From Patescibacteria group bacterium (GTDB lineage Bacteria; Patescibacteriota; Patescibacteriia; UBA9934; CAMTUG01), in the NCBI GenBank assembly GCA_038065815.1, contig JBBTQF010000012.1, positions 1,663 through 65,662 on the forward strand: DNA of 64,000 nt. The letters run 5' to 3'. The notes beneath the pieces are model-generated. The model made no database searches. It worked only from the letters and a program-made list of their open reading frames with translations, and was not told the DNA's origin. A program made the translations under genes and the position numbers. The first letter of the stretch is position 1; every line of letters begins with the position of its first letter. Positions 1-15,507 of the stretch are shown one piece after another.

Positions 1-119
1 TTCCTCGACAACTTCCAACGGTGGCTCTGGCCGTCTCACGAATAACAAAATCAGAATAATCGCAATCAGGATCAAAAGACCGGCGGTAAATACTTTCGCG
101 CGATTGGAAATCGTCATAC
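1..119 (-). CDS. Partial CDS with the N-terminus in the window (MTISNRAKVFTAGLLILIAIILILLFVRRPEPPLEVVEE...). It is a small membrane-anchored protein and its start abuts the stop of the VirB4-like gene.
   Basis: ATG at 117-119 on the minus strand is followed by a hydrophobic TM-like stretch. The ORF continues past the window edge and is directly downstream of the VirB4-like ATPase in the same orientation. Confidence 0.3.
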
Positions 120-2042
120 TTAAGATTCCTCTTTTTTAGAAAGTTCGAGATCTTTCTCAAACTCTTTTTTCGCCGCCTCAATCTCAAGGAGTTGTCGCGG
201 ATCCGTCGTGATAATTTGATCTTCCGCGTAGGAAGCAACAACTTTGATTGCCGCATGATTACGCCCTGCAAAAAAAACGCCCTCGCCAACGTCCGAGCTC
301 AACAACAAATACTTTTCTCCATCTGTAAGATTAAACGTCTTTTGTACGAGATCAATTGACGCAGTAGATTGCTTGAGCAAAAGCAAAAGTTGTGAGTTTG
401 TCACAATCGCCTGTCCATACTGCGAAAGCAAAAAGTCATTGACATCCTGCGTAATCGTGGTGATGCCGAGATAGTATTTGCGACAACGCTTCACGAGCGC
501 AAAAATAAATTTTGCCGAATCGTCATGTTGCATGAGCCACCAAGCCTCGTCAATAATGAGAATACGCTTTTTGCGTTCCGAACGGATGATGTTCCAGATG
601 TAGCTGATGATCGCATAAATCGCCATTGGACGCAGTTCGTCCTCCAAATCGCGCACCGAGAACACGACCAGTTGATTCTTTGTTTCCACCGTCGTCGCCG
701 AATTGAGAAACCCTGAAAATGTCCCTTCGGTGTACTTCATCAGGCGTGCCACGAGCTGTTCGGCCCCTTCCATCCCCTCAAGAACATCTTGCAAATCCTG
801 CAACACCGGCGCCTCAATGCCAGTGAGGTCGCGTGTGTCGGCGGTGATATCATTCTTGGCGTACGTTTCCAAAAGCGCGCGATCGAGAATCGAATCCTCT
901 TCCGGTGTAAATCCAAGTTTGGATTTTTCTCCCATTGGAACTCCAATCATGATCCGCAAGAGCCCCTTGACTGTAATGACGGCATTGCGAATCGTGTCCT
1001 CAATGCTTTCGTCCTGAAGAATCTTATGCGGGAGTTCAAACGGATTAACTTTAGATTCCGACGCGAGGGAAATGTTGACATACGCACCGCCAACCGCGTC
1101 CGACAAATGTTTGTACTCCATTTCAGGATCAATAATCAGCACCTCCGTTCCCATCATGAGCGAACGCAGTACCTCGAGTTTTACGGCATAACTTTTTCCA
1201 GCTCCGGAAGTGGCAAAACAACAGGCGTTGGCGTTTGGCAGAGAAAAACGATCAAACAGAATGAGAGAATTGTTATGGCGATTAATGCCGTACAAAATGC
1301 CGTTGTCGCTCGTAAGATCGGCCGAGATAAATGGGAACGAGCTCGCGATCGGCGAGGTGTTCATGTTAAACGTGATCATCAGCTCATCATTACCAAGTGG
1401 GAGCGTGGAATTGAAGCCTTGCTCGGCCTGATAATATCCGCGCTTGGAATGAATCAGCTTACTGCCAAAAATAGACTCGACCTCGCTTGAAATCTGATCG
1501 AGCTCATCTTTTGACTTCGCATACAAAGTCACGTAAAAGGCGAACTGGAAAAAATGCTCAATACCTTGAGTGAGATTGTCGCGCAGTTGCTCGATGTCCT
1601 TAAGCGCGGTCTCCCGAATTGGATCGCGCGCGGCACCCTTTTCTGCATCTCCCATAATCGTCGCCTCAAGTATACCAACTTTCTTTTTGAGCTGTTTCAA
1701 AATAATCTCGGCCTTGACTGGATAGAAAAACATGGCAATGTCGAGTGTCGCGTTCAAATTGAGAACTGGCGCGGACCAGCCGATGCCAATATAGCGCGGA
1801 TAACTCAAAACAAACACCGTCCGTAAAAAGGCATCTCCGAGTTTAATAAAGTCCGGATTCACCGCAAACGAAGCTGGTGCGATTAAATCCTTAATCGTAA
1901 CGACGCCTTTGCGATAGACTCGCTCTTCCTCAAGCGCCACCCGCTCGGTCGCGGCACGCAACTGTTCCTCGCTAGGTGGTTTGACCACCGCCGGCTGTTT
2001 GACTTCCTTGGAAAAATCTAATTTTTGTATCTCAATCGCCAT
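120..2042 (-). CDS. virB4: VirB4/TrbE/CagE-family type IV secretion or conjugation ATPase (ATPase portion).
   Basis: Walker A is FATSGAGKSY and Walker B is RILIIDEAWW; the DEAW box is characteristic of VirB4/TraC-type ATPases. The 640 aa sit directly downstream of a VirB3-like gene. Confidence 0.7.
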   Translation of the reverse strand: MAIEIQKLDFSKEVKQPAVVKPPSEEQLRAATERVALEEERVYRKGVVTIKDLIAPASFAVNPDFIKLGDAFLRTVFVLSYPRYIGIGWSAPVLNLNATLDIAMFFYPVKAEIILKQLKKKVGILEATIMGDAEKGAARDPIRETALKDIEQLRDNLTQGIEHFFQFAFYVTLYAKSKDELDQISSEVESIFGSKLIHSKRGYYQAEQGFNSTLPLGNDELMITFNMNTSPIASSFPFISADLTSDNGILYGINRHNNSLILFDRFSLPNANACCFATSGAGKSYAVKLEVLRSLMMGTEVLIIDPEMEYKHLSDAVGGAYVNISLASESKVNPFELPHKILQDESIEDTIRNAVITVKGLLRIMIGVPMGEKSKLGFTPEEDSILDRALLETYAKNDITADTRDLTGIEAPVLQDLQDVLEGMEGAEQLVARLMKYTEGTFSGFLNSATTVETKNQLVVFSVRDLEDELRPMAIYAIISYIWNIIRSERKKRILIIDEAWWLMQHDDSAKFIFALVKRCRKYYLGITTITQDVNDFLLSQYGQAIVTNSQLLLLLKQSTASIDLVQKTFNLTDGEKYLLLSSDVGEGVFFAGRNHAAIKVVASYAEDQIITTDPRQLLEIEAAKKEFEKDLELSKKEES

Positions 2043-2050
2043 AAGGTAAA

Positions 2051-2764
2051 TTAGGATGATCCGTAATCGGTAATAATGGTCCCCATATCCTCCACCTGAA
2101 GTTTATTCAAATCGCCTGCGCTTTGCACTTCGGCAACCTCTGGGTTATATACACGGTAGTACATCTCGATCAGGCCTTGAGTATCGAGCCGTTCCGTGTT
2201 GAGACTCATGCTCTCCATCTGACCGCGAATATATTCAACACGCTTTGAGAGTTCGCGCTTGCGTTCCTCATATTGCTTGCCTTTGAGCTTCAGCGTTGAA
2301 ATCGGCGTCAAGGCACTTGTGAGGCGATAGATGAAATTGCGCGTTTTGTTCGTCAACGGATCATACGGGATCACCACGAAAAATCGTTTTGACATAATCT
2401 GCCCGAGCTCCACCAACTGCTTTACAAATGCGACATAATCCTGAATCTGTGCGCGCAGGAGTTCATTTTTTTGAATGCGATATTGTTCCTGCAACGCCCC
2501 GATGTAGGCATCAATGTTCATTTTGCGCGATTGAATCACAACTTGCAATGGATGATCGAGGCCGTTCAAAAACTGCATATACGCCTGAACGAGCGCCTGC
2601 TGTTCATCCTCGGACTTAAGCGCGAAATTGATGCTACCGACCATCAAAACTGCGCGTACCGTGCCATCTTTCAAAATCACCATACCCTCGCGGATTTCGG
2701 CAATATCAAGATAGCGCTGTGTCGCTGGCCCTGGTTTTGGTTTGGCAAGTTTTTTCGACTGCAT
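2051..2764 (-). CDS. VirB4 N-terminal (CagE_TrbE_VirB-like) domain protein. It may be the N-terminal part of a split or frameshifted virB4, or a naturally separate subunit.
   Basis: The 237 aa end 8 nt before the ATG of the ATPase ORF and are in a different frame. Together the two ORFs total about 877 aa, typical for VirB4. The composition resembles N-terminal VirB4 regions; this is pattern-based, not searched. Confidence 0.4.
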   Translation of the reverse strand: MQSKKLAKPKPGPATQRYLDIAEIREGMVILKDGTVRAVLMVGSINFALKSEDEQQALVQAYMQFLNGLDHPLQVVIQSRKMNIDAYIGALQEQYRIQKNELLRAQIQDYVAFVKQLVELGQIMSKRFFVVIPYDPLTNKTRNFIYRLTSALTPISTLKLKGKQYEERKRELSKRVEYIRGQMESMSLNTERLDTQGLIEMYYRVYNPEVAEVQSAGDLNKLQVEDMGTIITDYGSS

Positions 2765-2770
2765 AAGTTG

Positions 2771-3202
2771 CTACTCTTCTGGTTGATACACTCCTCCAGT
2801 ATTCACAATCAGCGATAATTCCTGCAACCGACTGCTTGTCACCGGTTCTCTTGTCGCAACAACCGCGACAGGAGCAACAGCATCGCCTTTCAAGTATGGC
2901 TTAAGCTCCGCGTCTGTAAGCTTTTTGTCCCACACCCGAAGTAATGGTTTGCGAAAAGTCTGAATCATATTTAACACGAAAAAGTGAAACGGCTGGCCGT
3001 TGATACGAATGAAGGCAAATGTGACGCCAATCAGAAAAATTGGCACACCGAACAAGAGAAACTTCCAAAAGGTGAGCAATGAGTACAGAAGCGTATCCGT
3101 CAATCCCATCGCCAGCACAATAAGAAATTGTCGCACCGAAAGTGGTCCGAGAATCTTGTCCTCGATATCAATAAATTGCGGAACCGTGAATTGCTGTACC
3201 AT
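2771..3202 (-). CDS. Small two-TM membrane protein, VirB3/PrgI-like, located upstream of VirB4.
   Basis: The 143 aa contain two hydrophobic helices (LIVLAMGLTDTLLYSLL and LLFGVPIFLIGVTFAFI). A 6-nt gap separates it from the VirB4-N ORF, the canonical VirB3-VirB4 arrangement. Confidence 0.45.
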   Translation of the reverse strand: MVQQFTVPQFIDIEDKILGPLSVRQFLIVLAMGLTDTLLYSLLTFWKFLLFGVPIFLIGVTFAFIRINGQPFHFFVLNMIQTFRKPLLRVWDKKLTDAELKPYLKGDAVAPVAVVATREPVTSSRLQELSLIVNTGGVYQPEE

Positions 3203-3225
3203 GAAGAAAATGTCTATCTATTATA

Positions 3226-4668
3226 TCAGAAATGGAGTCCGGCGTTGAGTTGTATAATCGCCTTGACTTCCTCGACTCCAAGCGCTTCCTTACCTTGATC
3301 CTTCCATAAACGCCCGACCTCCGCAACGGGTTTACCTGTTTTAAGCGCCTCCTGCGAGAGCGAAACGTAAAGTTGATTCAATGGCGAAGCTTTCCATGCG
3401 CGTAGGCCAGCGACCTTTTTTTCATAAGTTTCATTGCCAAGTAGATCAATTTTGTCGCGAATCTTCATTATTGCTTCTTGCGGATCGCTCGCGAGTCGTC
3501 GAAAATCCAGTACCGTCATGCGTTCAAGCTCCTCAACAGGCCCTACAAGCTTGGACGTGTACTTAACGTCCGCCATCTGTGGCCTTGTCCCGACGGCTGT
3601 TGTCAGACTCGCGCTTGAGAGACGTGGTACAACTGGCTGAACATCTAATGGAAGCTTTCCTGTAAGCGCCGTGTAGCGCTTCCCAAGTTCTTCCTCTTCT
3701 TTAGCGGGACGCGACGCCACTTCCATCTCGCGTTTACGTTTCTCTTCAAGATAAAGTCGCTTTTGCTCTACCGCATTTTTCTCAAGCTCAACTTTTTGCG
3801 CGGTGTAGAGTTTCTCAACCTGCAGAGCCACTCGTTCGAGTTCATCGCCAGTCAGCCCAAGTCCTCCAGTGAGCACACTCTGCCCCAGCAGAGTCTTCGT
3901 CTGCGTCGCGTTGCGCAAATCCTTAAGACGAGATTGCGTGATGGTCTGAAGGCGTTTTTCCAAATCTGCAGATTTATTCGTCATCTCTATCAAAGATTTC
4001 TCCTTAACCTTTGTCACGTTTGTCTCATTTTTAACCTCTGTCTCTTTCTTCTTTGTCATCTCCTCCATTATCCCAACCGCCCCAGTCTCGATATCAAACG
4101 ACTTGCGACGCTTATCCAAAATCTCGATTAACTGGTGCGCCTGTGCCTCATCAAGCTCAAGCCCTCCAACTTTCACAGCTCGCCCAAGCGCTGAAATAGT
4201 CTGCACAGCACTGCGCCCACCGCCAACATAAGTCGTCAGCAAAAACTCCAAACGATTTTGCAAAGTCGCATCCGACAAATTTAACTTGGCTTCCTTAAGG
4301 GAGTCTTTGACAAACTGATCTGGAGTGAGTTCTTCTTTCTCAACATGCTTAATCTCTTTGGTCTCTGGGTCTCCGCCGAGCCGTTTGAGCTCCTCGCCAA
4401 CGCCGGGTAAATACGCGTCAAGCGGTAGGAGTCTCTGGGTGATGAGCTCACGAGCAAGATCATCCTTGCCAACTTTTGCCGCAAGCTCTGTAAGTTTCAG
4501 CGTACCGAGTAGCACATCTTCCGCAAGTAAAATCAAATCAAACGACTGATCATCATTCAAACCAAATTTTTTCAGCGCCTCAAGCGCTTCCTGCTCCTTA
4601 TCCGAATCAAACAAAAAATCTTGAACAGCTTGAGGAAGTTTTTGGTAATGTGAAAGACGATCCGTCAT
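3226..4668 (-). CDS. Soluble K/E-rich coiled-coil protein of 480 aa with no recognised domain. It is T4SS-associated by position.
   Basis: This long ORF lies in the operon-like minus-strand run between the VirB6-like and VirB3-like genes. It has heptad-like K/E/L-rich stretches and no TM segment. Confidence 0.5.
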   Translation of the reverse strand: MTDRLSHYQKLPQAVQDFLFDSDKEQEALEALKKFGLNDDQSFDLILLAEDVLLGTLKLTELAAKVGKDDLARELITQRLLPLDAYLPGVGEELKRLGGDPETKEIKHVEKEELTPDQFVKDSLKEAKLNLSDATLQNRLEFLLTTYVGGGRSAVQTISALGRAVKVGGLELDEAQAHQLIEILDKRRKSFDIETGAVGIMEEMTKKKETEVKNETNVTKVKEKSLIEMTNKSADLEKRLQTITQSRLKDLRNATQTKTLLGQSVLTGGLGLTGDELERVALQVEKLYTAQKVELEKNAVEQKRLYLEEKRKREMEVASRPAKEEEELGKRYTALTGKLPLDVQPVVPRLSSASLTTAVGTRPQMADVKYTSKLVGPVEELERMTVLDFRRLASDPQEAIMKIRDKIDLLGNETYEKKVAGLRAWKASPLNQLYVSLSQEALKTGKPVAEVGRLWKDQGKEALGVEEVKAIIQLNAGLHF

Positions 4669-4674
4669 AATAAA

Positions 4675-7518
4675 CTAACGACCAAAGCGCTTCTTGGCGT
4701 GTTCCGCGGCGGCGATTTTTCGAATCATGCTTGCGTCATCTTTGAGCGCTTGATAGTTATTCTTAAGAGCAAGAGTCACTTTATCAAGCGTATTGATGAG
4801 ATTAATTTGCTCCGAAGATTGCGATGGTGCGCGACGGATCTTATCTGCGATTCCTGTAATCTTGGTATCGGAGATCGCCTGTGCCACCGCCTTGCCAATC
4901 GCTCCGGCGGCGTCAGCACCGTCTATCTTGAGAATCATTTCCGGATTCTCCGAAATCATACTCTTAAAGCCAGCCTCGGCTGTCTCATCTGTAAAACGCC
5001 CTGCAGTTGAATCAAAATTAATCGCACGCGGAATGGCTGAACCCATCACCAGACGAGTCTTCATTGTTTCAGCAATTTGACGTGCGACTTGCTTTTCCAT
5101 GGCTTGTTTTTGCAAACCATATTCTGTCGATGTTTCTTTTCCGTCTTCATGTTTCGTCGTGGGTTGTTCAAAAGTCCGACCTTCTTCATCCACAAGATTA
5201 TTATCAACAAAAGTTTTAATACTTTTTCTTGCAAGATCATCGCGCTTATCCAATCTCTCATTCACCGCGCTGGTTAGCGCTGGGTTAGTCGTGGCAAGCG
5301 TGGTAAAACCTTTATTTACTGACGGATCAGTAAATTTGCTGAAAAACTCCTTGTTGCCAAGCATTTCAGGCGCAACGATATTTGATTTCAAATCATTAGC
5401 GCTCAACTTGCTAATTGATTCCGTAAGCCGATCAGTTGCTTCTGCAAGTCGCTGTTGTGCCTGCTCATGATCTAAACCAAGTCCAGCCTCTCCTCCTTCA
5501 ACACGAGTTCTAATTTTAGCTTCCTGCTGTTGAGCTGTTACAACAGATTTATGAGCACTCTGCATATCAGTCTGTCTCTTTTTTATATCTGCTTTTTCAT
5601 TCTCATTCCACAGATCAGACGTCTTCTGACCAGCCTTTCCCGCAAGGATATACTCTTCTCCAGTCCTACCTTCACGAGTCTTCTCATTACGCAGTGACTT
5701 GCGCACTCGAGGATCTGAAAGAGCTTTCTCATCTTCACCCCATGCCCGCATCTTACCTGGCGAAGCCAAAATCGTACGGACACGGTTATCAATCTCTGTC
5801 TGCTGGCGTCCTTCATACTGCTTTTCCGTTTCTCCGGGTTTTCTCTCTTTGGCATAGACAGCCGCCAGAGAAGGCGCCGCGTCAACCGCCCGACTAAATT
5901 TATCTTTGGTGGCATCGTCAAAATCGCCAACCATACCGCTATCGCGAATCTTTCCAGTAAGGTCTGTAAGTTCTTCTGGTTTAAGGGCAACACGCTTTTT
6001 CTCATCCATGACAAGTTTCAACTGAGCCGCCTGTATACGATTCTTTTCCCCATACGGCGTAAGTTTATTGATTTTAGTCCCAGCCAACCCCTTCAACTCT
6101 TCAGTCCCAAGTCCGGTCAAGCCCTTCAGAGCTTCCGCGCGGGACTCCTCTTTCTTGGCCTCCACAGCAGAAACCTGACTTAATCCAAGATCACGCACAG
6201 CACGCCCAGCGATGCCTAAACCGGGAACTTTCGCGACACCAGCCCCAACCTTACCCATAAAGCTACCAACCCCTGCTCGTGCTTTCAGAAAAGGAGCCAT
6301 ACCATAAGCTCGCGCTCCAGCTCGTCCAACTGCTAGACCGGCGCCTGCCGGAACGCCGATACCGATACGGGCAATCTGTCTGGAGAGACCTGGGATGCCG
6401 GCGATACCAGAAGTCATAAACTTGCCTGCACTACCACCGATCGAGCTTGCTGTCTGTTGGGAGATTTCGATTCCTGCAAAAATAAGTGCCAACGAGATTA
6501 TCAGACCCGTGAAGTGTGGCAGATCAAAAATTTTTGTAATAATGCCAACAGACTCACTCTCGCCAGCAGTGCCAAGATCAGTTTCAAAACCCTGCGTCTC
6601 TGCAAGCCCACCTGCTCCGGCGGTAGCCAACGCCAGCCACAAGAAAAAAGTCATGATCGGTCCGATGCTCACAGTGCTAGTAAAACGCTTCCACCAGTCC
6701 GAGTAGTATCCTTCTGCCGGCCCAATGACTCCCTTGGCGCCGCCAAGAAAAAATGCCAGAGGCGACAAAATGATGAGTATCCACAACATGACAATACGGA
6801 AAGCAAAAAGCATGGCCATGGTAAGCACGGTACCGAGTACGATAAACGAAATAACAAGACTCAAAAATGCCGCCCCAAGCAAATCCCACACACCATAACC
6901 GTTCTCTTTTTCAATTCCACGCATCGCCGCGTCCTCGCTAAACGTATACATTTTGTCGAGCCCGAACATGGAGATAAAATTTCCTCCAGCAATATCTTTG
7001 ATTGCGTTCACAAACGTAATCATGAACACTTGTCCGAAATCAATAATGAGACCGGCAATAGTGCGTGAAAAGTTGATGACGACGGCCATCAAAAGCAAAC
7101 GCGGAATTTGTTTCTTCCAATCTGCCCGACCAACGCCGAAAATCGTCTGAAAGGCGATGATGAGCAGTATGATGATAAAAAACATGTTCACAACGTCACG
7201 CACGATTGCCCAACCAAGTCCGACGATCTGCGAGGTTGTGAACTTGTCATAGCGCAAAATCGGTATGATGAGCACCTCAATCACTGCCACCACGACTTTG
7301 ACAACTTGTTGAGAAATCCACGCAAGAATTTGAGCCAGCGTAATGCCAACGCTTTCTGCGATGCTTACATCTGTTTTCTCACCGCCATCTTGGGCAAAGA
7401 CTCCTTGTACAAACAGCACGATAGCAAAAACGCAAAACATTCCGACGATCTGATATTTATGATCTCGGAGCCAATGCGTTGCAAAACGCAGACGATGTTG
7501 CAGCGTGTGCATATGCAC
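4675..7518 (-). CDS. Polytopic membrane protein of about 947 aa with a long charged C-terminal extension. It is VirB6/TrbL-like.
   Basis: An N-terminal signal/TM is followed by about eight hydrophobic helices spanning aa 30-400 and then roughly 550 aa of A/K/E/G-rich hydrophilic sequence. It sits between the M23 hydrolase and the coiled-coil gene with a 6-nt spacing to the latter. Confidence 0.4.
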   Translation of the reverse strand: MHMHTLQHRLRFATHWLRDHKYQIVGMFCVFAIVLFVQGVFAQDGGEKTDVSIAESVGITLAQILAWISQQVVKVVVAVIEVLIIPILRYDKFTTSQIVGLGWAIVRDVVNMFFIIILLIIAFQTIFGVGRADWKKQIPRLLLMAVVINFSRTIAGLIIDFGQVFMITFVNAIKDIAGGNFISMFGLDKMYTFSEDAAMRGIEKENGYGVWDLLGAAFLSLVISFIVLGTVLTMAMLFAFRIVMLWILIILSPLAFFLGGAKGVIGPAEGYYSDWWKRFTSTVSIGPIMTFFLWLALATAGAGGLAETQGFETDLGTAGESESVGIITKIFDLPHFTGLIISLALIFAGIEISQQTASSIGGSAGKFMTSGIAGIPGLSRQIARIGIGVPAGAGLAVGRAGARAYGMAPFLKARAGVGSFMGKVGAGVAKVPGLGIAGRAVRDLGLSQVSAVEAKKEESRAEALKGLTGLGTEELKGLAGTKINKLTPYGEKNRIQAAQLKLVMDEKKRVALKPEELTDLTGKIRDSGMVGDFDDATKDKFSRAVDAAPSLAAVYAKERKPGETEKQYEGRQQTEIDNRVRTILASPGKMRAWGEDEKALSDPRVRKSLRNEKTREGRTGEEYILAGKAGQKTSDLWNENEKADIKKRQTDMQSAHKSVVTAQQQEAKIRTRVEGGEAGLGLDHEQAQQRLAEATDRLTESISKLSANDLKSNIVAPEMLGNKEFFSKFTDPSVNKGFTTLATTNPALTSAVNERLDKRDDLARKSIKTFVDNNLVDEEGRTFEQPTTKHEDGKETSTEYGLQKQAMEKQVARQIAETMKTRLVMGSAIPRAINFDSTAGRFTDETAEAGFKSMISENPEMILKIDGADAAGAIGKAVAQAISDTKITGIADKIRRAPSQSSEQINLINTLDKVTLALKNNYQALKDDASMIRKIAAAEHAKKRFGR

Positions 7519-7613
7519 GCAGATTGTAACACGATTTGAGACGTTTGAACGGGCAGAGGTGGGGATAGAAACTTATAAGAGCGGGGCGGTCAGTGTGACC
7601 GCCCCGCGAAACG

Positions 7614-9380
7614 TTAAGGCACCTCGAAATATGCATCGCCACCGATGGAGCACGGATCGGTCGCCCAAACCGACGCGCTCCACGGGTCGGTATCAACCGT
7701 CACGGAAACACCGTCCACCTCAACCGTGCCACGCATGTCGATCGAGAGGCAATCGTTGTTGTATGCGGCCCAGTAGACGTCACCGCTAGAGCTCGTCTGG
7801 TACCACGCGTTGAGTTTGATCTCCTCGCCACTTTCCGCCTCTACCGACACACACATCGCGGTATCGCCGTTGTCGGCATCGTCCGCAACAGGCGAACCCC
7901 AGTAAGTGAAGGTGTTGCCGTCAAGGTAGAGGTTGCCGTCGTACATGGTGACGCCCGGCAAGTAGCAGACCTCCACGGTCGTGTCCTCGTAGGTCACAAC
8001 CTCGTCCGTCTCACTAGTATCGAGCTCTTCTTCCTCGTCGTCGGGCTCGTCCGACTCCTCCTCATCAGCACTGCCGGTATCGAATTCCTCTTCCTCGTTC
8101 TCCGCTTCTCCACCGGTATCCTCTTTCTCGTTCGGGAGTTCCTCGTCGTCATACGTATCGCCGGTATCGAGCTCGTCGGTGTCGTTGCGCTCATCGTCGT
8201 CATCGTTCTCCGCTCCGCCAATGCCAGCGACGCTACCGCCACAAGTCTCGATCATCTCCGCGTCAATGCAACCGTAGTCCGACGAACAACTACCCATCGG
8301 CAGTCCCGTGTCCGCGATCGTCCCGTCGCCAACCGTGACGATGTAGCGCGAACTGAACCCGAGCCGCAGGAAGATATCCCACGTCTCAATCGGCAGGGCC
8401 ATGCCATCGCTCACGACGTACAGGTCGGAACGGCTCGCCTCTTTCACGATGTCGCCATCGCGGAAGTACGCATTGTCCACGCGCCAGCTGACGTCACTTG
8501 TCTCGTCAATCGCCTCGCCGACGTCCATGCAGTCAAGCTCGTCAGGGGAGATGAGCACGACCTCGCTGAAATCGTAGCCGAGGTCCCAGAATACGTCCTC
8601 GCTCTCGATCCAACGGCGCTCACCGTCCTCCACGAGGTAGACGTTGTTGTCGTCCGGGGTCTTCACGAGCGTACCGTTCGGATGCCAGTTCGTGACTGGC
8701 AAAAGCGACCTGTAGGTTTCACCAGCGCCATCAAGCCCGCAGACGAAATCCTCACTTTCGAGCACGAGCTCGGACTCACCAGTACTCACGTTGTCCACGA
8801 AGTAGCCGACCTCGATCGACTCTCCGTATTCGGCCATGAGGCGTCCGTCGCCCTCGTGCAGACCGATATGCACATGGTCACCACTGCACTTGCCAGTACA
8901 ACCCTCGTAACCGAGAATCTGACCCGCCGCGACCTCAAACCCATCGCTCACGAAGATGTCGGACATGTGCGCGAGAACGACGTAGGTGCCGTCACCGAGC
9001 ACGATGTTGACGTGGTAGCCGAAGTTGAGGCTCGCTGACTCCATGTGGACGTAGGCCGTTCCGCCAATCGGCGCGTACACGATGTCGGACTCACCGTTTG
9101 GGGTGTCGAAGTCCAGATCAAGCTCCGTGCTGTCGCCAGCGTGCGAGTAGGTGTCGAAAGGCCCCTGCGTGCAGAGCGTCTTGTAACCGTCATGAAACGG
9201 CAGGTCAATGACGACTCCATCATAGCCACCCTGATCTGTGGACGAGCCGGGGTTTTCGAGCGACTCGATGAACTCTCTGTAGAGTGGATCCATCATCAAA
9301 CATCCGACCATGCCTGATGCGAAGATGAAGGTGATGATGGGAACTGCGTAGAGACGCAATTGGAACTCTTTGTGACTCAC
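7614..9380 (-). CDS. Membrane-anchored M23 (LytM) family peptidoglycan peptidase with a poly-acidic linker and a C-terminal domain. It is the cell-wall hydrolase of the T4SS-like cluster and a VirB1 analogue.
   Basis: The M23 motifs HxxxD (HAGDSTELDLD) and HxH (GDHVHIGLHEG) are present. An N-terminal signal-anchor is present. An acidic run of about 80 aa reads DDDDERNDTDELDTGDTYDDEELPNEKED...EEEEFDTGSADEEESDEPDDEEEELD. Confidence 0.7.
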   Translation of the reverse strand: MSHKEFQLRLYAVPIITFIFASGMVGCLMMDPLYREFIESLENPGSSTDQGGYDGVVIDLPFHDGYKTLCTQGPFDTYSHAGDSTELDLDFDTPNGESDIVYAPIGGTAYVHMESASLNFGYHVNIVLGDGTYVVLAHMSDIFVSDGFEVAAGQILGYEGCTGKCSGDHVHIGLHEGDGRLMAEYGESIEVGYFVDNVSTGESELVLESEDFVCGLDGAGETYRSLLPVTNWHPNGTLVKTPDDNNVYLVEDGERRWIESEDVFWDLGYDFSEVVLISPDELDCMDVGEAIDETSDVSWRVDNAYFRDGDIVKEASRSDLYVVSDGMALPIETWDIFLRLGFSSRYIVTVGDGTIADTGLPMGSCSSDYGCIDAEMIETCGGSVAGIGGAENDDDDERNDTDELDTGDTYDDEELPNEKEDTGGEAENEEEEFDTGSADEEESDEPDDEEEELDTSETDEVVTYEDTTVEVCYLPGVTMYDGNLYLDGNTFTYWGSPVADDADNGDTAMCVSVEAESGEEIKLNAWYQTSSSGDVYWAAYNNDCLSIDMRGTVEVDGVSVTVDTDPWSASVWATDPCSIGGDAYFEVP

Positions 9381-9734
9381 GTTTTTCTCCGTTTGAGAGC
9401 GGAATGCCCTCCCGCGTCGCGCCAGTACTTTCGCAACGTGCGGAGAGCAGCGATCGGCTCCGAAACTCCGTTCGGATGAGGGAAAGAATCTATGAAAACC
9501 AACTCATCAGTGACGTAAGGTTAAGAGGACGATCGACTGGAGGCTCTTTTGAAGTTTCTCTGCCCGTCGACAGGACTTCATTGCATCCAATCTATCGCAA
9601 AAACAGTGTGATGTCAATCGTTTTTTAGCTAAAATTAGCCAAGATGTTGACAACTTTTTCTGACAAACGCAAATAAAAAATCTCTTTTTAGGCTCAATAA
9701 AGCGCAAAGAACTCTGTCAGAACTCATTGACAAT

Positions 9735-9762
9735 GTGATGGGGGTGATGGGGTCAGGTCCCG
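9735..9762 (+). repeat. REP-like palindromic repeat copy (GTGATGGGGTCAGGTCC).
   Basis: It shares the GGGGTCAGG core with 11 other copies in the window. Confidence 0.5.
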
Positions 9763-9875
9763 CCGTCGCTGAAGCTTTGGCGGGCAGGCGGGCTACGTAC
9801 CTGATCCATATTGCGCGGATCCAAGGTTCGCCTAGTCGTTCCTTGGGTAACGAATGTTTGGTGCTTATCGAAACA

Positions 9876-9900
9876 GGTCAAACGCACTAAAGCACTGAAC
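9876..9900 (-). terminator. Hairpin (GAGGGCGCT-ataca-CGAGCGCCCTC) just downstream of the NUDIX remnant. It is a possible terminator.
   Basis: An 8-9-bp GC stem lies 12 nt after the stop of 9912..10184. No clear T-tract follows. Confidence 0.25.
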
Positions 9901-9911
9901 TCCTGAGGGCG

Positions 9912-10265
9912 CTATACACGAGCGCCCTCTTCTACTTTTTGGTAGACAGATGCAAAATATTTTTTTAGATTATTTTGAGTCAATACGTTCATGACTTCGT
10001 CGATCGGGAACCAGCATATTTTGTCCTCATAATGTTCCGTTCGTGTTTGCGCGTCCATTTTTGCTTCAACAAGGTACATGTTGAGTTCAACGGGCTCCTG
10101 CTTGTCATTTTTATAACTAAATAAAGGCAACACCGTTTTTATTTTTCCCTCTATCCCTGTCTCTTCCAAAAGTTCTCGCTTCATAGCTTCTTCTGTCGTT
10201 TCGCTGGATTCGATTTGCCCCTTGGGAAAACTCCAGTCGTTTTGTTGACGGTCAATGCCCGGGGT
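9912..10265 (-). pseudogene. 5'-truncated NUDIX hydrolase remnant.
   Basis: The Nudix box G-x5-E-x7-REUxEExGU reads GQIESSETTEEAMKRELLEETGI. It is intact only when the frame is extended upstream of the annotated ATG. That open frame hits a TAG at 10266-10268, only about 8 codons before the box, whereas normal NUDIX proteins have 30-40 aa there. A REP copy lies 40 nt further upstream. Confidence 0.45.
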
Positions 10266-10308
10266 CTATGATTTGGTACTTTCTGAACAACTTTTGTGCT
10301 CAAAAAAT

Positions 10309-10335
10309 CACACATCACAGGCCTGACCCTGTCAC
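10309..10335 (-). repeat. REP-like repeat copy (CACATCACAGGCCTGACCCTGTC).
   Basis: It is the reverse-orientation copy of the GGGGTCAGGCCTGTGATGTG family. Confidence 0.5.
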
Positions 10336-10364
10336 TACAATTACCATGTCGGCAATGGTGTCTG

Positions 10365-11201
10365 CTACGAGCGACGCACGGAGCGGGCGACGGCCATGAA
10401 GTCAGCAATTTTTTGCGCGTCATATCGACGGGCGGCGACCACGATATTTGGACCAAGACGTTTGCTCAGGTCGACATCGCCCTCTTTGAAAGCGGTACCG
10501 ACAATTGTCGCGTCAAGGTACGGTGCAAACCGAGTGAAGTTCTCCGCGGTCATGCCGCTTCCCGTGAGCACGGCCGCGTCACCCGCCTCACGCACTGCCT
10601 CCGCACATTGTTCCACTGATGGAGGGTCACCGGTCCACTGCCCCGTGACAATAACACCATCCGCGCCAGACGCAGACGCCTCGCGCACAGACTCAACGAA
10701 TGGTCGCGGCGTGAGCATCGTCGCATGCTTCACCTGTACGTCCGCGAGAATTGCCACGCCCTCCGCGCCAAGCGCCGCGCGGGCGGCGAGCACAGCCGCT
10801 GGGTTGGCATAAAACTTCCCGTAGACCGTCTCGACAGAATCAACAAACACTGGCACGCGCACCATCACGCCGCCAAGCTTTTTGCATGCTTCGAACCCGA
10901 ACGCAAAATCGTTCCAGAGCGGCGTAATGCCCCAGGAGACATGCGTTTCTGGCACCAACACCTCAAGTAACTCCATGAAATGGGCACGCGTCTCTGGACG
11001 CATCTTCTCGTGCTTAGGCTTATCAAAATTGTTTTCAAAAAGAATGGCATCCACGCCGCCTTTCTGAAGGGCGCGTAGGTCCTGTTGCGCGCGCCCAAGG
11101 ACAACCGCCTTATCGCCCTCATAGTCTTCCGTCCCCTCAAGGGGGGAAAAGTGAATCATGCTGATCACCGCTGGCCGTACCTTCAAGGAGAATTTCTTCA
11201 T
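10365..11201 (-). CDS. BtpA/SgcQ-family TIM-barrel protein.
   Basis: The 278 aa start with an IHFSPLEG N-terminus and carry a GGVDAILFENNFDKP motif typical of the BtpA family. The gene is GC-rich, about 63 %. Confidence 0.5.
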   Translation of the reverse strand: MKKFSLKVRPAVISMIHFSPLEGTEDYEGDKAVVLGRAQQDLRALQKGGVDAILFENNFDKPKHEKMRPETRAHFMELLEVLVPETHVSWGITPLWNDFAFGFEACKKLGGVMVRVPVFVDSVETVYGKFYANPAAVLAARAALGAEGVAILADVQVKHATMLTPRPFVESVREASASGADGVIVTGQWTGDPPSVEQCAEAVREAGDAAVLTGSGMTAENFTRFAPYLDATIVGTAFKEGDVDLSKRLGPNIVVAARRYDAQKIADFMAVARSVRRS

Positions 11202-11261
11202 ATGATGACAGTATAGTATGGAAAAGGGCGCTCCGCGAGGGAGCGCCCGATTGAGTGCGGG

Positions 11262-12707
11262 CTACTGGGCGTTGAAGCGTCCGGAGGCCTTGCAAGTGAG
11301 CTGGACCTGGCTGGCGAGGAAAGCGGACACACGGCCTTCACGGAGCGCCTCGAGACAAATCCATGCGCAGTGCGCGAGTTTCTCGGAGTCCGGACCACGG
11401 CCAGCACGGAAACGCGCCAAATCATCGTCCATCATGCCGTTCGTGAGGTAGAGCGCGAGACCAGCGTTCATGGCGAGGTACTCCACGAGCTGACGGTCGC
11501 GGTCATCACAGCCAAGATGGACAGCAATACGATTGGCCTCCATGATCATGGCTTCTTCGTTGGGCACGAAGACGCTCATGGGGTCGCGGAACATAAGGCC
11601 AAAGCTCGCGGGCGTGAGCACCACGTTGGCGAGAAACTCGTCGCGCGCAGTGAAAGACATGAGCGAGGCAAAGGGCGAGAGCTCATCGAGCACGGCGAGG
11701 TCGCGGATGTGGCGGCTGTTGATCGCCTCATGCGCGTCGATGTGCTGGCTGAGGCCGCATACCACCGCGACGTTGCCGACGTTGTAGACGCCGTCCGCGT
11801 GCAGACGAGCGTAGGCGCGAGCAATTGTCTCCGGGTGCATCTTCTCGTTGACGCCGATCACCTTGTCCAAACGCGTGGCCGGGGACACGGGTGGCGTCAT
11901 GGGGCCGATGACGTGGTTGACGGTCTCACGGCGCGGCAGCAGGTGCGACAGGTCATGGATCGTCTTCCATGCGTGGGCGTCCGTGAAGTGGAAGCCGCTC
12001 ATCGCGAGCTCCTCCTGGACATCCCTCTTGGGGATGTCCACGATCACGCCCAGATTCTCGATCGCCTCCGTGGAGCCGACAGCCGAGGTGTTGCTGTACG
12101 AGCCGTGCTTGGCCGTGCGGTGGCCGAGGCTCGCGACCGTGAGGGCCGAGAGCGTGGAGCAGTTGATGGTCTTGCGGCGCACCGGGTCGCCGTTGACCAT
12201 CATCCCGCGGTCGCCACCCATGCCGCAGGTCTCGAGGACGCGTGGGCCGTAGTCCGGGAAGTGGATGATGTCCATCTGCGCGGCGGTCACCATACCAGCG
12301 ACCTCGTCCGGCGTAAGCTCGGCCCATGCCTCCTTCATGGCGAGGCCGGAGAGCATCTCGCGGGCGGCCATGCAGTCGCCGTCAGGACCCAGCGAGGCAT
12401 CCTTGAGGCAGTGGAACCGACGCTCGAGGTGGCCGTTGCTAGCGCGAAGAATGTAGCAGGTGGCAGCGAAGGCCTCCTGGAAGGTGAGGTGGCCACCGAG
12501 GGACGCCTTCACGAGCTGGCTGTAGCCGAACTCGCTCAGACAGCCAATGAGGCTGAGCTGCTTCGCGTTGGGCTGGCAGGGGTCATAGAGCGCCTCGCGC
12601 ATGGGGATCTTGGCCAGATAGCGCGCGCGGGCAGCCGCGAACTCAGGGCCGTGCATCCCCTGAACGAGATTGATCTTGCTGAGGGGCCTGCTGGCATGGT
12701 CGTTCAT
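11262..12707 (-). CDS. TrpD-family (glycosyltransferase family 3; anthranilate PRTase / nucleoside phosphorylase fold) protein with an N-terminal extension of about 130 aa.
   Basis: The motif CGMGGDRG...TINCSTLSALTVASLGHRTAKHGSYSNTSAVGSTEAIENLGV matches the TrpD GTGGD/KHGN region. It is 481 aa, about 65 % GC, with an AGGAGA Shine-Dalgarno 5 nt before the ATG. Confidence 0.6.
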   Translation of the reverse strand: MNDHASRPLSKINLVQGMHGPEFAAARARYLAKIPMREALYDPCQPNAKQLSLIGCLSEFGYSQLVKASLGGHLTFQEAFAATCYILRASNGHLERRFHCLKDASLGPDGDCMAAREMLSGLAMKEAWAELTPDEVAGMVTAAQMDIIHFPDYGPRVLETCGMGGDRGMMVNGDPVRRKTINCSTLSALTVASLGHRTAKHGSYSNTSAVGSTEAIENLGVIVDIPKRDVQEELAMSGFHFTDAHAWKTIHDLSHLLPRRETVNHVIGPMTPPVSPATRLDKVIGVNEKMHPETIARAYARLHADGVYNVGNVAVVCGLSQHIDAHEAINSRHIRDLAVLDELSPFASLMSFTARDEFLANVVLTPASFGLMFRDPMSVFVPNEEAMIMEANRIAVHLGCDDRDRQLVEYLAMNAGLALYLTNGMMDDDLARFRAGRGPDSEKLAHCAWICLEALREGRVSAFLASQVQLTCKASGRFNAQ

Positions 12708-13099
12708 GATGTCTCCTGGGGGCGTGAAAAGGAACGGTCGATCTGAGGCTTCCTAAACATAAAAGCCCCATCATCGCAAGCCTATGGGAATATAGGCTCA
12801 AGAGGACGGAGCTTCTCCGTGGTGCCACCTCTGATTATCCTCACGCGCGCCAAAACGCGCTTTGAGAAACTTTACGCACTCCGTGGATATGCGTTAGCCC
12901 TTGGTTACGGGGGCGTCCGGTCGGCCACAATAGCAGCCGACGTCTCACCGGGTCCAATTTCACGATCGCACCAGACAGGGCTCACACTATCTCCTGTTCG
13001 CTTTGCTGGCTCACGCTCGCTACTAACTCCCGGATCAATGACGTTGTCGATGAGAAGGAACTAAATTAACGATAGCAGGTCGAAAAAATCGTGTCAAAT

Positions 13100-13810
13100 C
13101 TATGCCTTGTTCTCGAGGAATTGGCATGTTTGTTCCAAAGCTACGGCAATAGCGGTTTCTAGACTATCACCAAGAATTATTCTTGCCACTGTGTGCGCAA
13201 AAAATGTGTCGCCTGCTCCAATCGTATCCTTCGTAGAGACAACGCGCGGTGGCTGAAACGACATGTGTCTTCCTTCTGTGTAAGCGTCGACCCCATTAGC
13301 CCCCTTTGTCACCAATAAAATACGCGTTTTTTGATCTTCAACACTTTCAGCTGGAATAAATGAAAGCTCCAGCTCGGTTGCTTTTAAGCACCGCACGTTT
13401 TTTATCCAATCTCCTTCAAATTCCTTCCAGAGTCGTTTCTGACCCGGAATATTTGGTGCACGGACAAAACCTTGAACATCCAGGTACAGCTCGTTGCATG
13501 TTTCAAAAACAGCAACTGGATCCCATTCACGGGACAGTGTTGATATAAGGGCTGATCCGCTTTTGCAGACAGGTACATTTTTATTCTGTGCAACTGGAGT
13601 GACACTACCAATCTCGCCTTGTTCGTTCACTTCGATACATACTTCAACAACTGGACCGACATGACAATGCTCCTCTATGCCCTGCATTTTCATAACGGCA
13701 GAAATAAACGTCGCCGGCCCCCCGATACGTTCGGAGGTTTTCCCCTGTTTATGGTCAATAACAACATCGTGAGCTACTGTTGAATACACGTCAATCGATG
13801 GTTGATTCAT
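13100..13810 (-). CDS. PfkB-family carbohydrate/nucleoside kinase (ribokinase-like), short form.
   Basis: PfkB signature-2 is DTIGAGDTFFAHTV and the length is 236 aa. Confidence 0.6.
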   Translation of the reverse strand: MNQPSIDVYSTVAHDVVIDHKQGKTSERIGGPATFISAVMKMQGIEEHCHVGPVVEVCIEVNEQGEIGSVTPVAQNKNVPVCKSGSALISTLSREWDPVAVFETCNELYLDVQGFVRAPNIPGQKRLWKEFEGDWIKNVRCLKATELELSFIPAESVEDQKTRILLVTKGANGVDAYTEGRHMSFQPPRVVSTKDTIGAGDTFFAHTVARIILGDSLETAIAVALEQTCQFLENKA

Positions 13811-13852
13811 AGGAAGAAATGAAGAGGGGAGCCGAGGGGCTCCCTTTTAAGT

Positions 13853-14662
13853 TCAGAGTTCTCCGCGAAGGATGCGCTCCAAGATGTCAACGACGCCCGT
13901 GGTGTAGTAACCGACGGAAACATAATCGGCACGTCCCTTGTAGTCTGCGTCAGCATTGCCAACCGCCGCATGCGTGACGCCCTTGCCGCAGTAATCGACC
14001 AGCGCATTGCCGATCATGACGATCCGGGAGTCGGGCACATGTATGCGCACGCAGTCCGTGCCCAGTCGCTTGGACGCCTCGGCCGCATGAATGGCGAGCA
14101 CCCCGTGCTGAAAGTTGGTCAGGACCCTGAGCTGGCTACGTTCGGACTTGGACTTGATCCAGGACTCCGCGCGTTCGAGAAGTGTGGTGTCCGGGATCAG
14201 TTCGCCTTTTTCTCCCGTATACCAGCAAAATCCGAGACAACTTGACCGCCGGCGAGTGTTGACCCCGATGATGCGGCGGCCAGTTTCTCCGAACCGTGCG
14301 ACGAGTCGATTTTCGACAACGTCGCCGAGCCAGATGTCTGCCGATTCCGCATCGGCGAGTCCAACCAGATCGTAGCGCAGGTGGTAAAGAAACTTCCGAA
14401 GCTCTTCACCAACTGCATACACAGGTTCTGCGCCCGGGCTGATAGAAACGACGGTGCCGAGCTCGGCAACGGTCGGTCCATCCATTCCAAGTCGTAGCTG
14501 AATGTCTGTGAGCGACCGCAGAGGAGAGTCCGAGTGGAGACCGATGCGGACCCCTTGCTTGCGTGCCCTCTGCACCACTTCGTTGATGCGCGAATCCGTG
14601 GTCTGCTCGGTGCAGACGTCCACCAGTGTTTCGTCTTTGTCGATGAGAACGAGCGTATTCAA
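13853..14662 (-). CDS. HAD-superfamily hydrolase, subfamily IIB (Cof-like phosphatase).
   Basis: HAD motif I is LIDKDETL (DxDxT-like). The C-terminal MIGNALVDY...AVGNA matches the HAD-IIB motif IV region. Confidence 0.5.
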   Translation of the reverse strand: MNTLVLIDKDETLVDVCTEQTTDSRINEVVQRARKQGVRIGLHSDSPLRSLTDIQLRLGMDGPTVAELGTVVSISPGAEPVYAVGEELRKFLYHLRYDLVGLADAESADIWLGDVVENRLVARFGETGRRIIGVNTRRRSSCLGFCWYTGEKGELIPDTTLLERAESWIKSKSERSQLRVLTNFQHGVLAIHAAEASKRLGTDCVRIHVPDSRIVMIGNALVDYCGKGVTHAAVGNADADYKGRADYVSVGYYTTGVVDILERILRGEL

Positions 14663-14718
14663 AGTACCTCTGAATGTGCAAAAGAATCTTAGAACACAAG
14701 AACCGTATTTGTCAAAGA

Positions 14719-15507
14719 CTAGTCCTGCTCCAAAACAGTTTTTCGCACGAGCTCAACTAGGCGCTCATGAAGTACACCATTTGAAGCAATGTGTCCGTGA
14801 ATAGGGCGATCGTAGCGTTGCTCATTTCCATAAACATCCGTCACTCGTCCACCCGCCTCTTCAATGATAATTTTTAACGCGGCACTATCGTGTGGCCTAT
14901 CACCAGGAAAAAGCGTAGCAACAAACTCGCCGCTTGCCACAAGCGCAGCCATGTAGGCAATAGAAGCAACGACCATAATCTTTGCCTGCTCGTTGCGCAA
15001 AAACTCTGTCATTACAGAAAAATTAAATGGTGCGGATTTCCAATAAACGATGCCGAACAACGACTGCTTAAATGTATCGCTCTGAGAAACCTGAATCGTT
15101 TTACCATTCAAAGAAGCACCTTTGCCCTTTTCTGCAACATATATACGATCCATAAACGGATCGTAAATGACACCGAGAACACTTTCACCTTTGTGCGTTA
15201 AGGCAAGTGAAAACGTGCACAACGGAATACCATGAGAAAAAGGTACGGTTCCATCTAGTGGATCACAGACCCATACGAACTCACTCTGCTCACTAAACGC
15301 GTCACCTTCTTCAGCAAGAACACTATGATCTGGAAAAGTGTTCTTTACTGCATCAATAACCATCTGGTTTATCAAAAGGTCTGATTCTGTAAGAGGAGTC
15401 GCATCAGACTTCCACTCTTTCTTCATGCCCAACATAAAGTTGCGCCGAATAACTTCACCGGCGGCGTGGGCGAGATCAACAGCAAATTGTTGATAATCAG
15501 ATGACAT
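14719..15507 (-). CDS. Inositol-monophosphatase family (IMPase/SuhB-like) phosphatase.
   Basis: The WVCDPLDGT motif matches the W-x-DP-x-DGT signature, and the metal-binding EE region is present. The length is 262 aa. Confidence 0.65.
   Translation of the reverse strand: MSSDYQQFAVDLAHAAGEVIRRNFMLGMKKEWKSDATPLTESDLLINQMVIDAVKNTFPDHSVLAEEGDAFSEQSEFVWVCDPLDGTVPFSHGIPLCTFSLALTHKGESVLGVIYDPFMDRIYVAEKGKGASLNGKTIQVSQSDTFKQSLFGIVYWKSAPFNFSVMTEFLRNEQAKIMVVASIAYMAALVASGEFVATLFPGDRPHDSAALKIIIEEAGGRVTDVYGNEQRYDRPIHGHIASNGVLHERLVELVRKTVLEQD

Follow-up and report, generated by a model that had tools for sequence, protein, structure and literature searches.

What does a T4SS-like gene cluster do on a Patescibacteria chromosome when neither a relaxase nor a coupling protein accompanies it? 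The question is raised by positions 1-9380 of a 64,000-nt window (the whole stretch of DNA analysed) from a CPR bacterium of the Uhrbacteria/ABY1 group, found in groundwater. According to the ORF list, this region holds an operon of seven co-oriented, tightly packed minus-strand genes, given here by coordinate together with a promoter-like site:

1..117, minus strand: cut gene, first 39 codons (MTISNRAKVFTAGLLILIAIILILLF...), with its ATG at 117, 2 nt past the VirB4 stop
120..2042, minus strand: VirB4-family ATPase, 640 aa (NCBIfam conju_CD1110; Pfam P-loop_TraG, AAA_10, DUF87)
2051..2764, minus strand: TrsD-like protein, 237 aa, the VirB4 N-terminal domain as a separate gene
2771..3202, minus strand: PrgI/VirB3-like small membrane protein, 143 aa, two transmembrane segments (Pfam PrgI)
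3226..4668, minus strand: soluble, predicted all-helical protein, 480 aa, encoded between the VirB6-like and VirB3-like genes
4675..7518, minus strand: extended VirB6-like polytopic channel subunit, 947 aa, assigned by predicted fold
7614..9380, minus strand: M23 peptidoglycan metallopeptidase, 588 aa (Pfam Peptidase_M23)
9589..9617, minus strand: promoter-like site, candidate operon promoter, ~210 nt 5' of the M23 start codon

In operon order, the genes for the M23 hydrolase, the 947-aa, 480-aa, PrgI/VirB3-like and TrsD-like proteins and VirB4 are followed by the gene cut at the window edge. An initial, sequence-only reading had described seven co-oriented genes lying 6-95 nt apart, which is borne out by the measured gaps of 95, 6, 23, 6, 8 and 2 nt in this order. 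The promoter-like site (TTGACA-17-TAGATT, 10/12 matches) is the top minus-strand site within positions 1-10400 and represents a consensus match only. Since the operon is transcribed towards position 1, the missing piece is its downstream end, a probable VirB8-like gene followed by comF, and not its upstream end. An exact-sequence lookup returned the contigs L081 and L082 for the 947-aa protein and zero contigs for VirB4. L082 represents the same organism in another assembly, where the cut gene is complete: it encodes a membrane-anchored protein of 190 aa, with comF coming next. The sequence-only reading had advised inspecting the DNA beyond position 1 as the upstream flank; the direction was mistaken. 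Over the 1.7 kb past the window edge, L082 shows the VirB8-like candidate and comF, and no relaxase family match.

We are highly confident that the locus is a chromosomal Patescibacteria T4SS whose origins lie in the MPF-FATA-type conjugation machinery of monoderms. It is an ordinary case of an already described system, not a system of a new kind. Three reports from 2023-2025 describe such chromosomal clusters in nearly all ultrasmall CPR/Patescibacteria (PMC10633639, PMC12102498, PMC12857230). The gene order is common to the best 80 loci, all from Patescibacteria MAGs. The earlier proposal of a minimal Gram-positive/CPR-type T4SS holds, given that the organism belongs to the CPR and that VirB4, PrgI and M23 pass curated thresholds.

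As proposed from the letters alone, 120..2042 encodes a DEAW-box VirB4: the protein matches conju_CD1110 (1.7e-104; 350.7 bits, above the cutoff of 325) over model positions 167-730 of 752, as well as P-loop_TraG (2.8e-26), AAA_10 and DUF87. Both nucleotide-binding motifs are intact, with Walker A (ATSGAGKS) at residue 277 and Walker B/DEAW (IIDEAW) at residue 496. VirB4 here has no N-terminal domain of its own, which makes it the counterpart of TrsE-like proteins. The adjoining 237-aa gene, which the sequence-only reading had left unidentified, supplies that part. Its product matches the NCBIfam Mbov_0397 VirB4 model (positions 106-252; 3.6e-11), CD1110 (positions 11-104) and TrsD (1.4e-5), all below the curated cutoffs, and carries the precomputed annotation PF26593 (TraC-like). 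Jointly, the two pieces cover the full-length VirB4 models, and by these profile matches VirB4 is split here into TrsD-like and TrsE-like genes. A frameshift artefact was rejected as the cause of the split, because the two ORFs are separate and adjoining in 80/80 loci with variable spacing, and the split also occurs in Pontibacillus.

VirB4 shares 69-81% identity across 80 CPR species and at most 35% with any plasmid VirB4, the best non-CPR matches in the plasmid comparison coming from Firmicutes and Actinobacteria; these identities serve as a proxy, not a tree, for placing the protein in a Patescibacteria clade within MPF-FATA. In the same loci, the median identity of VirB4 (72%) exceeds that of RadA (53%) and RecG (47%), pointing to strong purifying selection.

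The expected two-transmembrane VirB3/PrgI-like protein matches Pfam PrgI above its cutoff (5.4e-8; 33.7 bits against 27), has hydrophobic segments at residues 17-35 and 38-69, and is syntenic in 79/80 loci. The 947-aa protein, which the public gene call starts two codons later (945 aa), had been read as a polytopic VirB6-like protein with a charged tail. Seven hydrophobic segments lie inside residues 21-348, and a membrane domain (residues ~20-350) is followed by a K/E/D/R-rich, all-helical C-terminal extension of ~550 aa. It has zero matches in Pfam and NCBIfam, and its membrane domain has none in a tblastn search of plasmids; PF19590, absent from current Pfam, appears in precomputed annotations of five homologues. 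Structure prediction, which had been proposed for both this and the 480-aa protein, recovered a VirB6 fold, and by its modelled fold the protein is an extended VirB6, a class defined in PMC12857230.

The 190-aa protein encoded by the cut gene has one N-terminal transmembrane helix and a family domain of ~120 aa, and its gene is present in 77/78 related loci. In a family of 68 members, two match Pfam VirB8 (best E 6e-5) and three match SnoaL_4, so that these profile matches identify the bitopic protein as a probable VirB8-like subunit. Searched against PDB sequences, the profiles of the 190-aa, 947-aa and 480-aa families all returned only coiled-coil or transmembrane noise.

The M23 assignment likewise survived, with a Peptidase_M23 match above the cutoff (1.1e-12; 48.4 bits against 28.7). 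The protein, an exported cell-wall hydrolase, combines a lipoprotein-like N-terminus (MVGC, residues 24-27), an HVH motif at residue 169, an acidic linker (44% D+E over residues 381-480) and a C-terminal domain. Its gene is upstream and syntenic in 50/80 loci, and the protein is probably a functional stand-in for VirB1.

The 480-aa protein is soluble and lineage-specific, and its gene sits between those for the VirB6-like and VirB3-like proteins. It has no transmembrane segment and no signal peptide, and its AF2 model (pLDDT 81) is all-alpha with a long helix at residues 274-336. An R..RL...GGLGL motif occurs twice, the Pro/charge-rich linker is variable, and a domain of ~110 aa at the C-terminus is conserved; the C-terminal portion keeps its syntenic place in 79/80 loci. 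The family comprises 1,917 clusters at 50% identity (E<=1e-30), and a third homologue search from its alignment added no further sequences. The protein itself has zero Pfam or NCBIfam matches, none of 52 family members scanned matches Pfam, and a Foldseek comparison of the model with the PDB gave no meaningful fold match. Kinship with the 947-aa family was considered and rejected, as hhalign shows none.

We compared the locus with known systems. According to work on Southlakia epibionticum (SEML1_0006-0019; PMC10633639) and a phylum-wide survey (PMC12102498), Patescibacteria T4SSs share VirB4 with an adjacent TrsD-like protein, PrgI/VirB3-like and VirB6-like proteins, a peptidase-type wall hydrolase and a chromosomal site with neither relaxase nor T4CP alongside. 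The same survey reports the same components, again with the relaxase missing, within an identical comF/recG/radA context in ABY1, and VirB8 homologues almost exclusively in that class. Unlike in Saccharimonadia, as portrayed there, no VirB2-like pilin array was seen beside the present cluster; furthermore, it has an extended-type VirB6 whose hydrophilic tail spans ~550 aa, and its 480-aa soluble protein is not named in the available parts of either paper.

Conjugative MPF-FATA systems of monoderms, namely the pGO1/pSK41 TrsD-TrsE subclass and pCF10 (PrgH-PrgI-PrgJ-PrgK-PrgL), have in common with the locus the VirB6-like, PrgI/VirB3-like, VirB4, wall hydrolase and (here probable) VirB8-like set and the lack of an outer-membrane core complex; in pGO1, the TrsD-like N-terminal protein is separate as well. 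In contrast, no relaxase or T4CP was found in the window, and the present locus appears to lack an oriT and an adhesin; its hydrolase is of the M23 instead of the SLT/CHAP type, and it is a core chromosomal operon, vertically inherited. The best plasmid match, the Pontibacillus sp. ALD_SL1 megaplasmid (NZ_CP062975.1, 352.7-361.4 kb), is typed as non-mobilizable and has a similar order of a polytopic 779-aa protein, a 116-aa protein, TrsD-like protein, split VirB4 and M23 endopeptidase, with 30% (6e-29) and 35% (1e-131) identity for TrsD-like protein and VirB4, respectively. It differs in its Firmicute host, the absence of a 480-aa homologue, the M23 gene located downstream rather than upstream, and the presence of an Mbov_0395 pilin-like gene. 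The solved channel subunits R388 TrwI/VirB6 and Legionella DotA share only 8-12% sequence identity with the 947-aa protein and belong to diderm systems; TrwI has no counterpart of the long C-terminal helical extension and pairs with VirB5, which is undetectable in the present locus.

How would such a machine work? From established T4SS knowledge, the M23 hydrolase would open the wall locally, VirB6, VirB3 and VirB8 would build the membrane translocon, and a VirB4 hexamer docked via VirB3 would power assembly and transport. The earlier observation that VirD4 and relaxase are missing from the window stands, since a scan of 41 window ORFs, each 150 aa or longer, gave no match to a T4CP (VirD4/TcpA) or relaxase family. 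In light of the literature, the absence of both beside the cluster argues that this is not a conjugation apparatus. According to PMC12102498, T4CP homologues mostly lie distant from virB4, so a T4CP may be encoded elsewhere in the source genome, of which 64 kb were examined. According to PMC10633639, the homologous T4SS of Southlakia is essential for epibiotic growth (Saccharibacteria Tn-seq). Extrapolating from this one study, the likelier role of the machine is to carry macromolecules between epibiont and host cell, in line with the host-interaction use that the sequence-only reading had mentioned for some ultrasmall bacteria.

The wider relevance of CPR T4SSs lies in their near-universal presence in a phylum that holds a large share of bacterial diversity, and in their being essential for epibiotic growth in the sole species tested. 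To this, the present locus adds modestly: predicted-fold confirmation of the ABY1 947-aa protein as an extended VirB6, a large operon-embedded family of soluble proteins of the 480-aa type, conservation of VirB4 beyond that of RadA or RecG across these genomes, and an invariant operon tail formed by the transmembrane-anchored protein 3' of VirB4 and comF.

This tail also gives rise to a different reading, which we judge unlikely: the ABY1 T4SS could be a DNA uptake device, in principle like Helicobacter ComB or archaeal Ced, passing incoming DNA to ComF, RecG and RadA encoded at the operon tail. The idea is also raised in PMC12102498. In its favor, comF is co-oriented in 73/73 relatives at a median of 18 nt downstream, recG and radA lie within 10 kb in 24/32 and 20/32 loci, the ComF of the source organism has CxxC zinc-finger and PRT motifs, a relaxase is missing, and VirB4 weakly matches CedB (2.6e-11). 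However, the CedB score is far under those of the conjugative VirB4 models, and the linkage to comF, recG and radA is reported for the class ABY1 only and thus perhaps reflects inherited gene order rather than function. At the cytoplasmic membrane, moreover, ComF usually has ComEC and ComFA as its partners. In Southlakia, competence needs ComEC and type IV pili, and the loss of comEC is non-lethal, whereas the T4SS is essential. We hold as more doubtful still a specific form of this idea, in which the T4SS imports DNA or another nucleotide polymer, is co-transcribed with comF and works with RecG and RadA, while the 480-aa cytoplasmic protein is a new subunit replacing the coupling protein as substrate handler.

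A machine that chiefly builds a VirB2-type pilus for host attachment, instead of transporting cargo, seems very improbable. VirB2-like pilin arrays occur near virB4 in many Patescibacteria and are essential in Southlakia, according to PMC12102498 and PMC10633639, and the Pontibacillus relative carries its pilin-like gene. Against this, no pilin-like small ORF or array was found in or next to the present cluster, and the rest of the 64 kb shows no obvious one. Genes of this kind are small and divergent.

Finally, the notion that the cluster belongs to an ordinary conjugative element (ICE or plasmid remnant), with relaxase and coupling protein just outside the window, is largely refuted: the top curated VirB4 family (CD1110) is conjugative and homologues abound on conjugative plasmids, which account for 1,887 of the 2,640 records matched, but the DNA past position 1 encodes ComF and the probable VirB8-like protein, the next 10 kb in relatives hold recG, radA and other housekeeping genes, the same chromosomal synteny recurs in 80 species, the plasmid VirB4s are distant, and no integrase was found flanking the cluster. 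The chromosomal T4SS is flanked by housekeeping genes and has a native composition, with a GC3 of 0.45-0.56 in its core genes, similar to GroEL and the tRNA synthetases, in agreement with the earlier view of housekeeping surroundings and no obvious ICE. The sole transposase-like gene (IS200-like, 23045-23902) lies 13.7 kb from the cluster. On composition and synteny, a recent horizontal acquisition of the core genes was rejected; for the M23 gene alone, which has an atypical GC3 of 0.75, it may have occurred.

Window positions 1-9380 contain the seven genes of the T4SS operon, each encoded on the minus strand and read in the direction 9380 to 1:

7614-9380, minus strand: M23 peptidase, 588 aa, first in the operon
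4675-7518, minus strand: polytopic protein, 947 aa (945 aa in the public gene call), second
3226-4668, minus strand: all-helical protein, 480 aa, third
2771-3202, minus strand: PrgI-like protein, 143 aa, fourth
2051-2764, minus strand: TrsD-like protein, 237 aa, fifth
120-2042, minus strand: VirB4, 640 aa, sixth
ATG at 117, minus strand: seventh gene, cut at the window edge (first 39 codons only)

The sequence-only reading had described seven co-oriented genes 6-95 nt apart. Their number and orientation hold, but the smallest gap is 2 nt (95, 6, 23, 6, 8, and 2 nt in operon order). A promoter-like TTGACA-17-TAGATT, a consensus match only, is located at 9617-9589 (minus strand), ~210 nt ahead of the M23 start codon.

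In a profile check, the proposed DEAW-box VirB4 ATPase (120..2042) scored 350.7 bits against the NCBIfam model of CD1110-family VirB4-like conjugal ATPases (curated cutoff 325) and also matched Pfam P-loop_TraG, AAA_10, and DUF87. Its Walker A motif, ATSGAGKS at residue 277, is intact, as is the DEAW Walker B at residue 496. Its alignment spans positions 167-730 of the 752-position CD1110 model, leaving the N-terminal part absent. The 237-aa protein supplies this part: it aligns to CD1110 at 11-104 and to the Mbov_0397 VirB4 model at 106-252 (3.6e-11), and it matches TrsD (1.4e-5). The two genes occupy different reading frames. We consider the split genuine and rule out a sequencing artefact, since the ORFs are separate and variably spaced in 80/80 of the best related loci and likewise separate in a Firmicute relative.

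Two further calls of the sequence-only reading, a two-TM VirB3/PrgI-like protein and an M23 cell-wall hydrolase, were borne out by Pfam (PrgI, 33.7 vs a cutoff of 27 bits, with two hydrophobic segments; M23, 48.4 vs 28.7 bits). The M23 protein carries a lipobox-like MVGC (24-27), an HVH motif (169), and a linker of 44% D+E. Profile and homology searches did not recognise the 947-aa protein. Its seven hydrophobic segments all fall between residues 21 and 348, and ~550 charged residues come after them. A Foldseek search with its structural model returned chains of TrwI, the VirB6 of R388, at probabilities of 0.91-0.99; the long helical tail draws in helical-repeat proteins, which weakens the E-values (0.2-0.6). 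We accept a VirB6 fold, in line with the VirB6-like label that the sequence-only reading had given to this polytopic protein with a charged tail. In architecture the protein corresponds to the 'extended VirB6' class of PMC12857230, where these T4SSs are reviewed.

The 480-aa protein has no TM segment and showed no relationship to the VirB6 tail. Its model (pLDDT 81) consists of alpha-helices, one of them long (274-336), and two disordered linkers; nothing comparable was found in the PDB. It belongs to a large family (1,917 50%-identity clusters at E<=1e-30 in an exhaustive HMMER search) without any Pfam or NCBIfam match among the 52 members tested, namely this protein and 51 diverse relatives. 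In the family alignment the R..RL...GGLGL motif is repeated, the Pro-rich spacer varies, and ~110 residues at the C-terminus form a well-conserved domain. The protein's position inside the operon is kept in 79 of the 80 best loci, which argues for a subunit or dedicated accessory factor.

The sequence beyond position 1 was obtained from L082, a second assembly of the same organism, from Hainich groundwater (its 947-aa protein shows 100% identity across the 945-aa public call). In place of the VirD4, relaxase, or pilin for which the sequence-only reading had suggested looking there, VirB4 is followed by a 190-aa protein with a single N-terminal TM helix and a 210-aa ComF-type phosphoribosyltransferase with CxxC motifs. 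Pfam matches within the 190-aa family (VirB8 in 2/68 members, 6e-5; SnoaL_4 in 3/68) are suggestive of a putative NTF2-like VirB8 fold.

VirB4 relatives were scanned in one genome per species, and more than 519 species matched. The best 80 were all Patescibacteria MAGs (69-81% identity), including Uhrbacteria, Falkowbacteria, and Magasanikbacteria, which we take to belong to GTDB class ABY1. Many of the closest were deposited as 'uncultured Gammaproteobacteria bacterium' despite a Patescibacteria-type VirB4 and gene order; these titles appear to be placeholders or mislabelled taxonomy. The conserved order in the best 80 loci is M23, VirB6-like, 480-aa, PrgI, TrsD-like, VirB4, with the 190-aa gene next in 77/78 loci and comF downstream in 73/73 (median 18 nt); recG and radA lie within 10 kb in 24/32 and 20/32 loci. 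A conserved ~174-aa TM protein also occurs within 6 kb downstream of VirB4 (32/37 loci). In these genomes the median identity of VirB4 to the window protein (72%) was above the values for RadA (53%) and RecG (47%).

Among 72,556 plasmids, VirB4 identity peaked at 35%, in Firmicutes and Actinobacteria. The top plasmid locus and closest non-CPR relative found, on a Pontibacillus sp. ALD_SL1 megaplasmid typed as non-mobilizable (NZ_CP062975.1, 352.7-361.4 kb; 35%), shares the polytopic protein, small protein, TrsD-like protein, split VirB4 (ATPase of 621 aa), and M23 endopeptidase in the same order, but lacks a 480-aa homologue. It includes an Mbov_0395 pilin-like gene and adjoins flagellar and chemotaxis genes.

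A T4SS of this kind is already known. PMC10633639 describes an essential T4SS in Southlakia epibionticum that is similar to Gram-positive conjugative systems but has neither relaxase nor coupling protein. For 3,035 Patescibacteria genomes, PMC12102498 reports a VirB4 clade that is monophyletic and lies within MPF-FATA, widespread TrsD, PrgI/VirB3, and VirB6, VirB8 almost restricted to ABY1, M23 domains in some hydrolases, rare relaxases, T4CPs far from virB4, and, in ABY1, comF, recG, and radA near the T4SS. The window cluster appears to agree with the published description on every point.

Both the observation and the interpretation of the sequence-only reading proved sound, and we regard a native, strongly conserved, non-conjugative T4SS serving an epibiotic lifestyle as the best and a very probable explanation. 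A role in DNA import, coupled to ComF, RecG, and RadA, is the reasonable minority alternative, albeit an unlikely one. A remnant of an ICE is very unlikely. None of the 41 window ORFs of at least 150 aa matched a coupling-protein or relaxase family, in agreement with the sequence-only reading, no pilin-like array was visible in the window, and the core T4SS genes share the GC3 of GroEL and the synthetases (0.45-0.56).

Outside the operon the window holds ordinary chromosomal genes, in keeping with the earlier description of the flanks as housekeeping and accessory DNA: BtpA, an AMP-phosphorylase-like GT3 enzyme, PfkB, inositol monophosphatase, KsgA, a release factor, GroEL, YidC, NusA, three tRNA synthetases, a Ser/Thr kinase, and two tRNAs. 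Codon composition is mosaic across 7614-15507, where genes of high GC3 (M23 0.75, BtpA 0.65, GT3/AMP-phosphorylase-like 0.84 with GC 0.64, HAD hydrolase 0.67; window norm ~0.45-0.57) are interleaved with low ones (PfkB 0.39, inositol monophosphatase 0.40). With GC3 far above the norm, the M23 gene at the operon head looks compositionally foreign, although 50/80 of the best relatives have an M23 gene in the syntenic position.

A 90-aa ORF (9905-10184) covers NUDIX profile positions 49-123 of 134, the C-terminal half only, and is possibly a truncated gene; its stop is overlapped by a strong 9-bp GC-rich hairpin (9905-9929), which sets the ORF apart from the T4SS promoter region. A 285-aa ORF (23045-23902, minus strand), about twice as long as such transposases usually are, carries an IS200-like Y1 transposase domain over roughly its first 120 residues; no other gene in the window is mobile-element-like. 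A single CBM_4_9 carbohydrate-binding domain is the sole Pfam match of a giant 3,050-aa ORF (24872-34024, minus strand), which probably encodes a large surface protein of a kind common in CPR genomes; the 217-aa ORF that comes next (33954-34607) shows a faint bacterial TSP3 repeat. A 728-aa protein (57220-59406, plus strand) with six FG-GAP repeats and four MopE-type putative metal-binding motifs is probably a surface or adhesion protein.
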